DNA of 37,524 nt from IMG/VR virus record IMGVR_UViG_3300035533_000068, positions 1 through 37,524 of that record, one strand, 5' to 3'. Position numbers and translations under genes: made by a program. Under the pieces are notes generated by a model. It worked only from the letters and a program-made list of their open reading frames with translations. It ran no database searches and was not told the DNA's origin. Shown here in pieces: positions 2,178 to 16,333 of the stretch (positions are counted from its first letter, which is position 1; each line of letters begins with the position of its first letter). Source of the DNA: a virus. Taxonomy: Duplodnaviria > Caudoviricetes.

Positions 2178-4217
2178 ATGTCTCCATTTGAATACCATAA
2201 TAATATATTAGGAGTGCAATCAAGATATCTTTTCTATGGCAGAAACTCGTGCAATGATAGCATGAAGTTTATTAGCGATAGAGCTTTCAGGGATAGGGTT
2301 AAACAGGAAAAAATAATCCGTTTACGTTATACCGGACCAAATTCACCATCATTAGTCATTTTTGAAAGTTTACCTATTGATTGGCAGAATAAACTAATAG
2401 AAAAATTCGGCGACCCGCCGGAGCAGGCCCGACAATCTTTGTTCAGTAAGTATTACGAGCGCGATAAAACCGCTTATGATTACTACATGAAATATCAAAA
2501 ACCTGATGGAACTTTCCTGGATGACGACAAAATCGAAGAGTACACCCTAAATGCTTCCGTGCTTAACTTACTGAACAAAATTCGGGCCATGCGAAAGTCA
2601 TTCAGGAAGGAGTTAAGAGGCGGAACGGCTGACGTTTGGGAGACAATTGTAACCGATTGTGTTAATTTTAAAAGAGAAGTGAGGCATACTTTACCAGAAA
2701 AGCCGAGGCCGCTTTATAATAAGCTAACAAAGTATAATAAGGAAGGATATATTTCTATTATACACAAAGGCGTTAGCAATAAGAACCGTACAAAGGTGAA
2801 TCCCGAAATAGAACAATTTTTAAACGATATGTTTGCCGAACAGGCAGATAAACCAACAGCTACTGAAATAGCCAGACAATATGAAGGTTTTTTAAACGGG
2901 TATGTTACAGTAGTAAATAGCGACACCGGAGAGCTTTACGATCCTAAAGGTTTTCCAAAACTTGGAAAATCTACTGTAAAAAATTATTTAAACGAATGGA
3001 GAAATAAAATAGCTACTCACACTAAGCGCTCAGGGAACCGACAAATTTTAATGAGTAAATTCAAACCTTATCATACACTCATTCAGCCTGAATTTGCCAA
3101 TAGCATAATATCTGTAGATGACCGTCAACCACCTTTTGAATATGCAAACAGTAAAAGAGCATGGTTTTACAATGCTATTGATCTTGGCAGTGAAGCTTTT
3201 ACAACATGGGTATATGGAAAATCGAAAGAGGGAATTATTATAGATTTTTATAGGCAAATGATTCGTAATTATACCGAATGGGGCTTGAATTTACCTGCGG
3301 AGATAGAATGCGAAATGTCATTAAACAGCTCTTTTAAAGATACTTTTTTAAAAGAAGGTGCCATGTTTCAGTTTGTGCGAATTGAACCAAATAACGCACG
3401 AGGTAAACGAATTGAGGGATATTACCGGCCACTAAGATATCAGCTTGAAAAGAAACGCGAAGGATGGCTGGCGCGTCCGTTTGCATTGGCCGAAAGTAAC
3501 CAGGCTGGCAGTAATAAAGTGCCACAATTGGGATATGATGAAATTATACAAGGTTCTTTAAAGGATATTGAAACTTGGAATAATATGCCGCATTCCAAAA
3601 TTAAAAATATGAGCCGTTGGGAGGTGTTTCTTGCAACTCAACACCCGAGCGTACAACCAACCAACTGGCGTGCTTTTTTGCCGCACTTAGGTTACAAAAC
3701 AGAAACAAGCTGCCGTGCAGGAATTATTAAGCTTCAAAATTCCGAATTTTTGTTGGGAGAGAACAGCCTGATAAGTTATTCTGACGAATTAATAAAATTA
3801 ATGGATATAGTTGAAGGGAAACCGCTTGATGTTTATTGGATAGATGGTAATGACGGCAAAGTGCTCAAAGCATTGGTTTATTTGCGTGGCACATCGAAGT
3901 ATATATGCGAAGCGGTTGCTAAACCTGGTTATAAAAAGGCACGAATTGAGCAAAAACCGATTGACCTGGCAAACCGTGAGGCAATGGTGAAATATGTAAG
4001 TACGGTTGAAGGTTACCAACGCCGAAGGGCTCGAAGTATTAATAAGATAACTGTTATTGATGAACGTCCGGTAACGCTGAACAATAAGTTTACCATCCCT
4101 GAACTGCATAAAAATAAAACATTAAATACCGAACCGGAAGCATTACCAGATGCTGAAGAGTTCGAATTAAACACCGTTGAAACACCATTTAATAAAAGTT
4201 TAGGCGATAGATTTTAA
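2178..4217 (+). CDS. MuA-like DDE transposase/integrase
   Basis: 679 aa, located between the Ner-like gene and the AAA ATPase. RNase H-fold signatures: ISVDD, AIDLGSEAF, NARGKRIEGYY, IETWNN. Confidence 0.88.
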   Translation: MSPFEYHNNILGVQSRYLFYGRNSCNDSMKFISDRAFRDRVKQEKIIRLRYTGPNSPSLVIFESLPIDWQNKLIEKFGDPPEQARQSLFSKYYERDKTAYDYYMKYQKPDGTFLDDDKIEEYTLNASVLNLLNKIRAMRKSFRKELRGGTADVWETIVTDCVNFKREVRHTLPEKPRPLYNKLTKYNKEGYISIIHKGVSNKNRTKVNPEIEQFLNDMFAEQADKPTATEIARQYEGFLNGYVTVVNSDTGELYDPKGFPKLGKSTVKNYLNEWRNKIATHTKRSGNRQILMSKFKPYHTLIQPEFANSIISVDDRQPPFEYANSKRAWFYNAIDLGSEAFTTWVYGKSKEGIIIDFYRQMIRNYTEWGLNLPAEIECEMSLNSSFKDTFLKEGAMFQFVRIEPNNARGKRIEGYYRPLRYQLEKKREGWLARPFALAESNQAGSNKVPQLGYDEIIQGSLKDIETWNNMPHSKIKNMSRWEVFLATQHPSVQPTNWRAFLPHLGYKTETSCRAGIIKLQNSEFLLGENSLISYSDELIKLMDIVEGKPLDVYWIDGNDGKVLKALVYLRGTSKYICEAVAKPGYKKARIEQKPIDLANREAMVKYVSTVEGYQRRRARSINKITVIDERPVTLNNKFTIPELHKNKTLNTEPEALPDAEEFELNTVETPFNKSLGDRF

Positions 4218-10049: not shown

Positions 10050-10613
10050 ATGAAAAAGTTTTTTAAAGTATTAATGTATGTGATTTTAGGAATCATAGGA
10101 TTGTTTATTATTCTTTTTATTGCTACCATTTCAGGTAACTCTGATTATGAACCTTTACCAGAAAAAGAACTATCTCAAGCAGAAAAGGATAGTATTGCTA
10201 AAATTGAATTAACTGAGAAAATTGATGAATTGGAGAAGCAAATTGAATACCAAGAGAATTATACTTGGGATGCTAATAATTTGTTGCATTATTATGAGCA
10301 AAATGAAGTGAAAGCTGATAATAACTTCAAAAACAAAAAAGTTTATATTAAAGGGAAAATACAAGATTTTGGCAAAGATGTAGTAAATAGGCCTTATATT
10401 ACAATTGGGTTATATGATTATGTATCTTCTGTACAATGTGTATTTCCTGAAAATTCATCAAGTGTTATAGCTGAATTACAAAAAGGTCAAAATGTTGTTG
10501 TCAAGGGAGTATGTAAAGGCAAGCTTTTAAATGTGTTATTTGAAGATTGTGAGTTGATTAAAGATGTCCCTGAATTAAGAAAAGAATTAAGTAATTTGAA
10601 AAATCAGATTTAA
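10050..10613 (+). CDS. Membrane-anchored OB-fold protein (tRNA_anti-like family)
   Basis: N-terminal TM helix; YEQNEVKADNNFKNKKVYIKGKI and LQKGQNVVVKGVCKG. Confidence 0.75.
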   Translation: MKKFFKVLMYVILGIIGLFIILFIATISGNSDYEPLPEKELSQAEKDSIAKIELTEKIDELEKQIEYQENYTWDANNLLHYYEQNEVKADNNFKNKKVYIKGKIQDFGKDVVNRPYITIGLYDYVSSVQCVFPENSSSVIAELQKGQNVVVKGVCKGKLLNVLFEDCELIKDVPELRKELSNLKNQI

Positions 10614-12973: not shown

Positions 12974-14986
12974 TTAATATGATAATTCAGTATTACGAAC
13001 CACACGCATCAGCATTTTTGAGAACCACTCTTCCAACTCCTGAGCATCCATTCTTTGAAGTGTTGTATTTTCAGTATTAATATTGCCTTTATTCAAAGCG
13101 TCAATATTTATGGTAATATTACGAATTTGTTTGGCACTTCCGGTAATTTTATTGATGCCCAGGTCTTTTTGTGTAGGAATACCTCCATTGAGCGAATTAG
13201 GGGCTTCGTTGTTATCTGTTGAAAAAGGACTTACCTCTGCATCAGAACTTTCTTCTTCATCAGATTTCTTTTTCCAAGCATCATTCCAAATATTTTTAAG
13301 CTTAACTTCGCTTAGCTTCCTTTCCATGTAGTAAGCTGTTCTATTAGCTTCTTGTAGCTTTTTTAATTGTTCCAGCTCTTGTGATGCATCAGTTACTATA
13401 TTTTTTGTTAATGCTTCTTTAGCACCTGAAAAATCGCCTTGAAATGCTAACTTTATAGCTTGACCTACATTTTTAAAGAGTCCTTTTATATATTGTCCAA
13501 AACTCTTAAACTTTAATTGCAATTTTGTTATTCCAAAGGCAATTGTATCTCTTAAAAATTCCCAATCCCTTTTAGCTGATTCCCATACAATGTTTATTGC
13601 TTTTTTTACATGCTCCCATTTTTTAACCAAAATTGTAACAAGTCCTACTATGCCAACTATTAACATATATATAAGGCCAAAAGGGTTCTTTTTTGCCACA
13701 GCATTAAAAACAAGCATAGCTACTTTTGCTGCTCCTAAGGCTCCAACCGTCCATTTTACAGAAGTTGTAATTGTATCAAGGTTTGCCCAAACAAATTTTA
13801 GAACGTTATTAAACTTTTCAAGTGTAACTACCCATAATGGAAGGAATTTTTCTCCTATTCTTTCCATTATCGTTCCTAACCTGTCTCTTGCCATGTTGGA
13901 CAGAATGGTAAAATCACCTTTTGCGTTTTCCATGGCTTTGTCCAGGTTAAAAGCAGAATCATCATAGGCTTCTAACGTATTAAAAAAATCATCGGCCCCG
14001 GTTTTTAATTTTATAAATAAGTTTCTCAATCCTTCGGGTCCGCCAATTTTTGCAATTATGGCATCTATTTGTTCGGAAGTCATTCCCTTAAACCGTTCGG
14101 AGGTTTCTTTTAGTACATCGCTTAAATTACGCATATTGCCCGTAGCATCATACATAGATATGCCCATGGATTTTAATCCTTCAATAGTTCCTCGCTGGGT
14201 TAGCCCTTCGAAAGCTGTTTTTGTCATGGTAGCGGCTGTTCTGGAATCTTTTGCAATAGAAGTAAATGCAGCAAATACCTTATTGGCTGTATCGAGGCTC
14301 TGCCCTGCTCCTGCTGCAGCTCCCAAAAATTCAGTTTGATATTGTGCCAACTCTTTAAATGTGGTAATACCTACCTGTACGGTTTTGGCGTTGCTATCCA
14401 GCATGGCATCAATATCCTGCACGCCCAAACCCATGGCTTTCATTGCTTTTACAGTTTGGTTTACGGCATCGGGCAGCTCAGCACCAGTGGCAATAGAAAA
14501 TTTTCCTACTTTCTTGGTTATATCGGCCACATCCTGTCCGTACAATCCTGTAGCTGATTGAATGTCGTAAAAAGCTTTAGCAGTATCTTTGCTTGAAAGG
14601 CCTACATCAAAAGCTACATCTCTAACCTTAGAGCGGTATTTATCCAGCTCTTCGTTCGATTTGTCTAAGTTAAGTTGCCGGATATTCAAAAATTCGTGAT
14701 TAAATTCCGCAGCCCGTTTTGTACTATTGGTAAATGCTACGCCAAGCCCTACCACTCCGGCAGCTAATAGAACATACGGATTTTTCAACATTCTTAATGC
14801 TTTATCGAGCAATGGCACTTCGTCCCGCATAGCCCGGAATGCTTTTATATGGTGATTTTTCCAATCGGTAATATTTGATTTTATTTCATTAACATTTTGA
14901 TTAACAGCTTTTTTTGCTTTTGCTATACCGCTTGTTACACGCTCTTTCATTTCAAGTATCAGCTCTATCTTTGCCTGTCCGGTCAT
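12974..14986 (-). CDS. Tail tape measure protein (TP901-family core)
   Basis: AFYDIQSA, TVQVGITTFKELA, MGISMYDATGNMRNLSDVL; hydrophobic segments (NPFGL); C-terminal ITINI. Confidence 0.88.
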   Translation of the reverse strand: MTGQAKIELILEMKERVTSGIAKAKKAVNQNVNEIKSNITDWKNHHIKAFRAMRDEVPLLDKALRMLKNPYVLLAAGVVGLGVAFTNSTKRAAEFNHEFLNIRQLNLDKSNEELDKYRSKVRDVAFDVGLSSKDTAKAFYDIQSATGLYGQDVADITKKVGKFSIATGAELPDAVNQTVKAMKAMGLGVQDIDAMLDSNAKTVQVGITTFKELAQYQTEFLGAAAGAGQSLDTANKVFAAFTSIAKDSRTAATMTKTAFEGLTQRGTIEGLKSMGISMYDATGNMRNLSDVLKETSERFKGMTSEQIDAIIAKIGGPEGLRNLFIKLKTGADDFFNTLEAYDDSAFNLDKAMENAKGDFTILSNMARDRLGTIMERIGEKFLPLWVVTLEKFNNVLKFVWANLDTITTSVKWTVGALGAAKVAMLVFNAVAKKNPFGLIYMLIVGIVGLVTILVKKWEHVKKAINIVWESAKRDWEFLRDTIAFGITKLQLKFKSFGQYIKGLFKNVGQAIKLAFQGDFSGAKEALTKNIVTDASQELEQLKKLQEANRTAYYMERKLSEVKLKNIWNDAWKKKSDEEESSDAEVSPFSTDNNEAPNSLNGGIPTQKDLGINKITGSAKQIRNITINIDALNKGNINTENTTLQRMDAQELEEWFSKMLMRVVRNTELSY

Positions 14987-15001
14987 TTTTTACTGTTTTT
15001 T

Positions 15002-15033
15002 ATTGATTTTTCAAAAAAGTTGTTATATATTTG
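15002..15033 (+). promoter_or_regulatory. Promoter opposite to the morphogenesis operon, driving a short RNA
   Basis: ATTG 15002-15005, 20-bp spacer, TATATTTG 15026-15033. Confidence 0.6.
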
Positions 15034-15037
15034 TATT

Positions 15038-15095
15038 GGTTAGGGATGCGTCCCAGACCTCCCAAAAAAGGCAGTTGTTTATAGCTGTCTTTTTT
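15038..15095 (+). ncRNA. Candidate ~58-nt small RNA convergent with the MuF-nuclease gene
   Basis: GGU..GGGA-UGCG-UCCC..ACC hairpin followed by a terminator; no ORF; promoter immediately upstream. Confidence 0.5.
15064..15095 (+). terminator. Plus-strand-specific intrinsic terminator
   Basis: GGCAGTTG-TTTA-TAGCTGTC followed by T6. Three G-U pairs on the plus strand become A-C mismatches on the minus strand. Confidence 0.65.
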
Positions 15096-15097
15096 GT

Positions 15098-16333
15098 TTA
15101 TAATCCAAAATCTTTTCTATTATATATAAATAATTTATTATTATCATCAATTATCCAAAGTTCTAATATATTTTTGTTATGATTAAGTTGTCCTTTTATT
15201 ACATTTTTCATTTTATCGTTAAAATTAGTTCTTAATTTAAGAACCATTTTATTGGCTTGTTTGCCTGCTCTTCTTATAGCATTTCTAACAGATGTATTTG
15301 ATGTACCGGCTAATTTTAGTTCAAATAATCTATTATTTGTTAATGAATCAGGATTTTTGCCTTTGATAAAATCATCAGTTCCATATATCATTTTACGAAT
15401 TTTATCATCTTTCTGTCCTAATATCGGTAATAAATCAACATTACAATTATTATCGGCTAATATTTTTGAAATCATAATATTATCTTTCATTTCTTTTGTC
15501 CCGTGCAGCAGATGCATTTTTACTCTTCCATTTTCTGCAGTATAAATATCTTTATATGCTGCATCGGGCGGCAAGTAATGGATAGCTTTTCGTAATGTAT
15601 TTTGAGGTATACCATTATAATATGGGTGTCCTTTCGGATATACCAATCCTGTTTTTGCCAAATTTGTTTCAAACATTTTTGGAATGCGGACATCTGGAAT
15701 TTCTTCTGTTTCCTTGGCATAGCTGGAAGCTATCTGGTTCACGCTGCAACGGCATCCCCACCCATTGGGAGGATAATACCTGTCCCAAAATCGGTCGGTT
15801 ATCTTTTTTACAATCCCGTCCAATAGCTGATGCTCATCTCTTACGTTATTATCGCCTACCGTGTCATACTGCAAATAGGGCATAATGTCCGCATTCTTTT
15901 CGAAATCGTTCCATCGTGCGGCCATGGTGCTGGCACCAACTGCCTGGTTATATTCTGTTCGTAACCAGCGGCGGTATTTTTCATCATCCAGTTTGGCGGC
16001 ATCTCTGAAATCTTCGAAGCTCCGCAATTTGCCTGTTTCATCTTTTAACAGCAAACTCATATCTCTGAGTTGCTGGTAATCTTTAGCAGCTGCAAATTGC
16101 CAGGTATCACGTGTTAACCGGGTAAGCATTGCTGCATCGGGAGTATCAAAATCAACCTGGGCAAATGTTTGTCCAAATCCTGCGGTTACCTGGCTTTCCA
16201 ATGCCGTACCGATATGTTTCAATAGTTTGCTGTCAATGTCTCCTGCGGTAATATTCCCGGCATATACATCTTTTATAATGCGGGTAACTTCACGTTTTAT
16301 TTTCAAAGTTACCGATGCCGGAAGGTCATCCAT
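15098..16333 (-). CDS. MuF (gp30) minor head protein with C-terminal CdiA-CT-like PD-(D/E)xK nuclease extension
   Basis: MuF motifs WLRTEYNQA, YDTVGDNNVRDEH, YYPPNGWGCRCSV. C-terminal NPD...FELK...AIRRAGKQA. Confidence 0.85.
   Translation of the reverse strand: MDDLPASVTLKIKREVTRIIKDVYAGNITAGDIDSKLLKHIGTALESQVTAGFGQTFAQVDFDTPDAAMLTRLTRDTWQFAAAKDYQQLRDMSLLLKDETGKLRSFEDFRDAAKLDDEKYRRWLRTEYNQAVGASTMAARWNDFEKNADIMPYLQYDTVGDNNVRDEHQLLDGIVKKITDRFWDRYYPPNGWGCRCSVNQIASSYAKETEEIPDVRIPKMFETNLAKTGLVYPKGHPYYNGIPQNTLRKAIHYLPPDAAYKDIYTAENGRVKMHLLHGTKEMKDNIMISKILADNNCNVDLLPILGQKDDKIRKMIYGTDDFIKGKNPDSLTNNRLFELKLAGTSNTSVRNAIRRAGKQANKMVLKLRTNFNDKMKNVIKGQLNHNKNILELWIIDDNNKLFIYNRKDFGL

Follow-up and report, generated by a model that had tools for sequence, protein, structure and literature searches.

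A conserved opposite-strand RNA unit behind a MuF-fused nuclease gene of a transposable phage: a candidate tRNA-acceptor mimic with a predicted immunity function

A small non-coding RNA, predicted in the gap between a MuF-nuclease gene and the tape-measure gene of a transposable phage, is probably a mimic of the tRNA acceptor end and the immunity factor of the neighbouring MuF-fused predicted tRNase, whose substrate site it would occupy. The DNA under study, termed the window, is a virus record of 37.5 kb (37,524 nucleotides) with genes for transposase, terminase, Mu-type portal, MuF and tape measure. The MuF toxin gene lies in the head-packaging module of this temperate phage, as the terminase, Mu portal and transposase genes indicate. 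The nearest named relatives reside in Marinilabiliaceae genomes, thus a Bacteroidota host is likely. The original prediction had placed a candidate RNA antitoxin, a decoy or ligand of the nuclease, in the gap. This interpretation is supported by comparative, not experimental, evidence, and the decoy idea gains a specific form: the RNA appears to copy the acceptor end of tRNA, the part cut by the closest solved relative of the toxin. The tape-measure gene (12974-14986, minus strand) follows directly after MuF, apart from the plus-strand tail genes, an order kept in close relatives. The window also encodes an OB-fold 'tRNA_anti-like' protein (10050-10613, plus strand) with a superinfection-exclusion PHROG as second match.

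The gap extends from 14987 to 15097 and thus has the 111 bp announced for it. The following features were assigned:
12974-14986, minus strand: tape-measure gene, next in the late operon, its start 52 nt from the predicted 5' end of the RNA
15002-15005, plus strand: -33-like element ATTG (consensus TTTG, PMC7366714), read directly, conservation in relatives by eye only
15026-15033, plus strand: Bacteroidota -7 promoter box TAnnTTTG, here TATATTTG, read directly
15038-15059, plus strand: hairpin of 4 bp, an A-A 1x1 mismatch, 4 bp and a UGCG (UNCG-type) loop, from fold, covariation and tRNA-Cys likeness
15060-15062, plus strand: unpaired U-C-C, equivalent of tRNA N73-C74-C75, the CC register shared with relatives
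15063-15096, plus strand: predicted intrinsic terminator, 15-pair stem including three G-U pairs, U-rich 3' arm, from the fold
15098-16333, minus strand: gene of the MuF head protein with C-terminal toxin extension, 411 aa (Pfam Phage_Mu_F and CdiA_C; PHROGs minor head protein)
15101-15565, minus strand: PD-(D/E)XK nuclease domain, predicted tRNase of the CdiA-CT 1026b type, from profile, model and catalytic residues

The promoter was present as claimed, with a 20-nt spacer between ATTG and TATATTTG. The TAnnTTTG box is reported to span -12 to -5 (PMC9723704), thus +1 is predicted at 15038, the first base of the hairpin. Protein genes located behind the same kind of box in related phages start most often at offset 4 and none earlier (8 of the 24 starts listed). 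The box by itself occurs 43 times in the window and is thus common; its significance rests on the conservation in relatives. The region 15036-15100 folds with -25.8 kcal/mol (z -5.2, 0 of 200 shuffles as stable). The GC-rich hairpin was recovered at the predicted place, its outer stem resembling tRNA pairs 1-72 to 4-69; by itself it is weak evidence (z -2.0, 9/200 shuffles). The terminator stem ends at 15096, 2 nt before the toxin stop codon, in agreement with its proposed position. Its three G-U pairs were confirmed, but the view that it folds on the plus strand only was overstated: the minus strand still forms a weaker stem (-8.6 versus -16.5 kcal/mol on the plus strand) followed by U6. Among the relatives the cassette strand had the more stable terminator fold in 44 of 53 cases. 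From +1 to the stem end the predicted non-coding RNA has 59 nt, close to the ~58 nt expected.

The absence of an immunity ORF was borne out: only four short ORFs of 21-59 aa touch the gap, all TTG-started and none credible as an immunity gene, and both on the plus strand begin upstream of the promoter box. None of 53 cassettes has an ATG at +1, and ATG frames of at least 40 aa, present in six, have scattered offsets. A coding role of the cassette was rejected on these grounds. No Rfam family reached its gathering score (best weak match 18.8 bits, cut-off 52). The window holds one copy of the cassette (53 bits; next score 12.9). An attachment-site remnant was rejected by reasoning, since both acceptor strands flank a new loop and the phage is transposable.

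The MuF gene product matches Phage_Mu_F (PF04233) with an E-value of 1e-15 and CdiA_C (PF18451) with 1.4e-6. A single-sequence search of solved structures with the toxin domain gave nothing relevant; a profile of 81 homologues matched the CdiA-CT of Burkholderia pseudomallei 1026b (4G6V_A, E 1.7e-6). The domain was modelled with a pLDDT of 97.7, and the model superimposes on 4G6V with a VIA-align Z of 11.9 and an rmsd of 2.8 over 117 residues, followed by the E479 tRNase as second-best match (Z 6.5). The catalytic residues E25, D73, E82 and K84 (domain numbering) are kept in the window in conserved columns, D73 aligning with the NPD of 4G6V. CdiA-CT 1026b is reported to cleave tRNA-Ala at the acceptor stem and to be blocked at the active site by a protein, CdiI (PMC9086364). 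By analogy with this closest structure only, the MuF-fused domain may be a tRNase that cleaves the acceptor stem. Stand-alone homologues of 140-190 aa exist as well; one of them (P0036) had no match in an annotated phage collection.

The association of cassette and toxin was surveyed in MuF loci collected via the N-terminal part, blind to the tail. Each of two large scans contributed the best 80 of ~600 matches; 163 of 168 sequences had a complete gene, and removal of two copies of the window's own locus and of duplicates left 149 loci. Tails were classified by profile, Pfam (78 tails) and hand. A convergent box at a distance of 45-125 nt from the stop codon was present in 57 of 60 loci with CdiA_C-like tails, in 23 of 30 with LPD3/PBECR-like tails, in 2 of 25 with protein-modifying tails (a hand-assigned class, five of its members classed after their ORFs had been seen), in none of 7 with other tails and in 3 of 27 toxin-less MuF loci, here as chance boxes. 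Thus the check proposed with the original prediction, presence behind nuclease tails and absence behind toxin-less MuF genes, came out in its favour (57/60 versus 3/27). Phylogenetically independent pairs from a FastTree tree agree but are few: five pairs for the CdiA_C-like class (median p 0.0625), eight for both nuclease classes (median p 0.016). The box accompanies every one of the 55 domains in which both catalytic acids are present. Three domains (L034, L135, L328) each miss one catalytic acid and each lack the cassette; these degenerate tails are possibly kept as inactive domains. A further degenerate site (L144) retains, by eye, a cassette-like hairpin. Near-identical MuF N-termini carry different tails together with different slot contents in L006/L009, L060/L066 and L098/L102/L104.

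Broad nuclease alignments were too diverged for a DNA scan; a narrower alignment yielded eight loci. A later sample of 401 Bacteroidota genomes gave 13 matches, 11 of them new. Six of the new loci have the canonical box and three a variant box with another RNA (by eye); the remaining two (L340, L341) have the domain, no MuF match and a same-strand ORF in place of the cassette, thus the nuclease domain is not always served by an RNA. Four loci (L335, L336, L338, L339) represent a nuclease subfamily with its own shared RNA motif on the opposite strand after the stop codon, with the variant box in three. One genome (G001) harbours two prophage nucleases with different cassettes, L330 (Asn-like by eye) and L342 (Cys). 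In L116 a second, orphan cassette (3855-3924, minus strand) is located ~230 nt past the cognate one; its promoter region is duplicated, its hairpin differs, and it would be an RNA counterpart of poly-immunity loci.

The exact hairpin geometry of the window follows the box in 26 of 53 cassettes, compared with 15 of 729 boxes elsewhere and 230 of 10600 shuffled sequences; the remaining 27 cassettes have hairpins of other shapes. A MAFFT alignment of 41 cassettes split the hairpin with gaps, therefore covariation was counted on 19 chosen same-register relatives: 90% of the cells pair, two-sided changes occur in 8 of 8 pairs, and covariation reached 0.78 in this chosen set (shuffled 0.21, slid at most 0.28). 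Unfitted, all 52 distinct RNAs were paired to 56%, compared with 37-48% after sliding. Of 60 held-out nuclease loci, a covariance model of the 19 chosen sequences, promoter included, detected 16 at E<0.01 and 27 at E<0.1. It had no match at E<0.1 among 93 control loci, so that the covariance check suggested at the outset also turned out positive. Two motif scans of IMG/VR gave 28 matches. Twelve had hairpin and terminator and all of these face a MuF-CdiA_C gene, seven on contigs already in the set and five new; none of the other 16 faces such a gene.

For the comparison with tRNAs, positions 1-4 and 69-73 of the tRNAs of three Bacteroidota genomes, the only ones with known host tRNAs, were matched to the 52 RNAs; ~2 of 58 tRNA-end motifs look mis-registered and were kept. 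Eight of the 52 RNAs match a real tRNA end at 9/9 positions, compared with 2.0 +/- 1.6 in a column-shuffled null (0/150 as high), and cover six distinct ends: Cys, Thr, two Gly, Trp and Leu. With the tRNAs of one genome, eight matches were again obtained (null 1.35, 0/200). The other 44 RNAs are not perfect matches, and the mean match is barely over the null (7.33 versus 7.11 +/- 0.10, 3/150). RNAs of the LPD3/PBECR class gave no perfect match (0/23). A CC in the exact N73-C74-C75 register is present in 23 of 52 RNAs versus 0 of 23 of this other nuclease class. The stems of the 20 RNAs ending in U-C-C, which are related sequences, fit U73 tRNAs better than equal-sized random tRNA sets (6.85 versus 5.56 +/- 0.40, 0/5000). 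The RNA of the window agrees with the tRNA-Cys end at 8/9 positions; its stem alone equals a tRNA-Asp stem, with a discriminator wrong for tRNA-Asp. Two RNAs (L092, L095) copy the G4-U69 wobble of tRNA-Thr(GGU), and the later-found L342 matches the tRNA-Cys of its own genome in five pairs plus UCC. The acceptor type tracks nuclease subclades, an agreement that is descriptive only since kin share labels. The cultured phage TCUEAP3 (L329, 3167-3240) has nuclease and cassette with a tRNA-Trp-like end (7/9).

Behind protein-modifying tails (deamidase, zincin-like and similar) the slot holds a convergent ORF of 64-92 aa in 23 of the 25 hand-classed loci, the box lying ahead of the ORF, 150-300 nt from the stop codon. 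Ten deamidase-linked slot ORFs form one family. For one ORF-toxin pair (L076) a binding score of 0.73 was predicted, with 0.01 for the best control; the runs agree in 96% of contacts and the partner has a pLDDT of at least 86. The binding-score mark was reached by 116 of 157 solved pairs and 2 of 215 mismatched pairs. In the predicted complex the ORF product covers the invariant C25 and H120 of the toxin's active site. A glutamine-deamidase MuF toxin was likewise modelled with its small ORF in the Bxa study (PMC11699363). The hankyphage has a convergent, unannotated gene in the same slot, hp22 (L354, 3899-4168), with a box of the same kind ahead of it. Normalised reads of hp22 in the control lysogen at 6 h were 1452-1779, the highest of 46 genes, and those of the MuF gene 1-2.3 (PMC12135933, S6 Data); hp22 is likely the immunity protein of the papain-fold tail of the hankyphage MuF. 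Slot ORFs, predicted binding, hp22 expression and tail swaps together give the picture of an immunity position that is expressed in the lysogen and moves with the tail. Three loci with zincin-like tails (L085, L148, L150) have cysteine-rich convergent slot ORFs of 76-78 aa, a candidate second immunity family.

LPDs are listed as domains of unknown function in PMC5512222. The LPD3 tails were modelled weakly onto BECR RNases, the top nine rows having Z 4.3-5.6 with each match individually weak. LPD3-tailed MuF genes (L006, L013, L014, L024, L103) face a different opposite-strand RNA, several with a tRNA anticodon arm (Cys, Arg, Ser): the RNAs of L006, L013 and L014 match the anticodon arm of tRNA-Cys at 15/17 positions and that of L024 holds the Arg(UCU) loop. 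Most LPD3 RNAs lack a clear anticodon-arm match. Raw counts gave a mixed result, with an anticodon-loop match of at least 6 in 4 of 15 LPD3 RNAs versus 3 of 53 of the acceptor class and a match of 7/7 in 2 of 15 versus 0 of 53.

Two phyla other than the Bacteroidota also yielded PF18451, one in 2 of 401 genomes and the other in 8 of 301. In six loci there with phage-type CdiA_C (L345, L348-L351, L353), inspection by eye showed a long hairpin downstream of the gene together with a convergent -10-like element; in three with secreted-type toxins (L344, L346, L347) there is an ORF on the same strand and the cassette is missing. In L345, one locus picked by eye, a paired end with CCA resembles the host tRNA-Met at 11/12 positions (2/150 shuffles), and comparison with host tRNAs out of register gave nothing (188/200). 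L352 was discarded as a false PF18451 match. The odds are about even that a family of tRNA-fragment decoy RNAs immunises temperate phages of at least three phyla against their own virion-borne tRNases, the PD-(D/E)XK tRNases being countered by mimics of the acceptor end and the LPD3 (BECR-like) RNases by mimics of the anticodon arm. Such an RNA would replace the protein immunity gene in a swappable slot, could accumulate as orphan copies and would name the target tRNA by its sequence.

In the proposed mechanism the host sigma factor would transcribe the RNA constitutively in the lysogen, by analogy with the slot gene of the hankyphage. The 5' end would be flush with the stem, like G1 of a tRNA, and the RNA would present a four-pair acceptor stem and N-C-C to the tRNase, which would bind it as a decoy. 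The nuclease may take stem and U-C-C for a U73 tRNA, likeliest tRNA-Cys, the stem alone also fitting tRNA-Asp. Two features may render the RNA a poor or slowly released substrate, namely the mismatch at pair 5 and a 3' end that is taken up by the terminator helix instead of being free. Candidates for its survival are the mismatch, the 3' terminator helix, or an RNA that is cut and held; a substrate mimic could instead be cut and lost. The RNA would shield the lysogen from toxin that leaks, is made in the lytic cycle or arrives in virions, and non-lysogens would lose the target tRNA.

Other roles of the unit have to be weighed against this decoy function. It may act on the late mRNA, as antisense or by convergent transcription, and lower leaky toxin expression without protein binding. 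We regard this as unlikely. In its favour, the intergenic part of the MuF-tape-measure transcript is complementary to the RNA over its full length, many relatives have a terminator that extends across the toxin stop codon, and a strong convergent promoter is, by analogy, likely active in the lysogen. Against it, all 52 RNAs have hairpin and NCC outside the toxin frame and far from the toxin start, and 52 nt separate the beginning of the RNA from the tape-measure start. The antisense alternative named in the original prediction thus kept its complementarity and was weakened by the position of the conserved part. Moreover, cis-antisense does not call for a conserved shape, whereas shape and tRNA likeness persist and vary with the nuclease class, and the predicted binding protein in the slot behind other toxins would be left unexplained. 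An RNA that binds the nuclease as cofactor, guide or packaging partner, licensing or aiming the enzyme instead of inhibiting it, would show the same co-occurrence and tRNA likeness, and an RNA identity that tracks nuclease subclades would suit it. This role is nevertheless improbable: the CdiA-CT 1026b monomer binds tRNA one to one, the available part of the report mentioning no RNA cofactor (PMC9086364), the secreted homologues L344, L346 and L347 lack the cassette and have an ORF on the same strand, the equivalence of the slot favours immunity, and a lysogen without inhibitor has no evident protection.

A tRNA decoy against host anti-phage defences that target tRNA, located beside MuF for reasons of layout, has precedents in phage tRNAs that counter such defences (PMC11555353) and could account for the orphan cassette of L116. 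However, within the same phage groups the RNA is absent behind toxin-less MuF genes and behind other classes of toxin, it is also missing from the three nuclease loci with degenerate sites, and it swaps together with the toxin tail, which makes this role very improbable. There is hardly any chance that the unit is an ordinary terminator with the left-over promoter of a lost immunity gene and that the hairpin is incidental. The box is common (43 in the window) and the hairpin by itself reaches only z -2.0, but its geometry recurs after the box of cassettes (26/53) far above other boxes (15/729) and shuffles (230/10600), and perfect tRNA-end matches exceed the null. Covariation in 8 of 8 pairs largely refutes an incidental hairpin.

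The cassette is real, conserved and apparently unreported, and part of a polymorphic toxin system. A full-text literature search, mostly without subscription papers, revealed no RNA immunity for MuF- or CdiA-type toxins and no tRNA-fragment antitoxins. Immunity in polymorphic toxin systems is taken as protein-based; an RNA antidote acting by substrate mimicry would, if true, be a new principle there, and type III-like antitoxins would have a further origin, new and unrelated. The MuF nuclease genes that seemingly have no immunity gene, a gap hindering tests of MuF toxins, would thereby be explained. The RNA would predict the target tRNA for dozens of uncharacterised tRNases (Cys, Thr, Gly, Trp, Gln and Asn types), for instance Thr for L092, Gly for L016, Trp for L118 and Gln for L107. 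LPD3 is proposed to function as an RNase, and nuclease-inhibitor pairs that are very small and orthogonal might become available for laboratory use.

Among known systems, the described MuF polymorphic toxins (PMC5576092; Bxa, PMC11699363) are alike in the MuF protein with variable toxic tail, the head-packaging module and the adjacent immunity slot. MuF domain and C-terminal toxin domain are present in the window (PF04233, PF18451), the tails vary among relatives, and the tail is predicted to be toxic to bacteria. The immunity described for MuF toxins is by proteins, a small ORF following 89.4% of 191 toxin genes (PMC5576092; PMC11699363). Unlike there, the slot in the window holds an opposite-strand non-coding unit and no small immunity ORF. 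With CdiA-CT/CdiI 1026b (4G6V, PF18451) the domain has fold, profile and catalytic pattern in common; that system comprises two-partner secretion and the CdiI inhibitor (PMC9086364), whereas the window has a phage head fusion and no CdiI-like gene.

The RNA would bind and inhibit its toxin like a type III antitoxin, outside the known type III families. In type III systems (ToxIN, CptIN, TenpIN) the antitoxin is encoded upstream in the toxin's operon as tandem repeats, which are cut into pseudoknots, and the toxins are MazF-like. In contrast, the RNA of the window is present in one copy, downstream and convergent, is a putative tRNA-end mimic and faces a PD-(D/E)XK toxin; the domain belongs to the CdiA_C family and not to ToxN, CptN or TenpN. 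The inhibition of an RNase by a small RNA would be the shared principle (PMC13682666). A type I assignment does not fit the window either, where the RNA ends before the stop codon and the conserved part lies outside the frame in 52/52 RNAs. Type I antitoxins pair with the translation start or the coding region of the toxin. AbiF-ncRNA (RCd22; 10.1101/2025.04.15.648962) is alike in that a prophage toxin is neutralised in trans by direct RNA binding. It belongs to an Abi_2/Cas13-linked family with repeated abiF motifs and no head-protein fusion, tRNA mimicry being unmentioned in the abstract (10.1101/2025.04.15.648962); the domain of the window is of another fold and family. Phage tRNAs that evade defences (PMC11555353, PMC12409363) are likewise phage RNAs with tRNA features set against a tRNA nuclease. 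They are reported as whole tRNAs that replace the host tRNA and counter a host enzyme, whereas the window encodes a 22-nt putative fragment mimic beside the phage's own enzyme.
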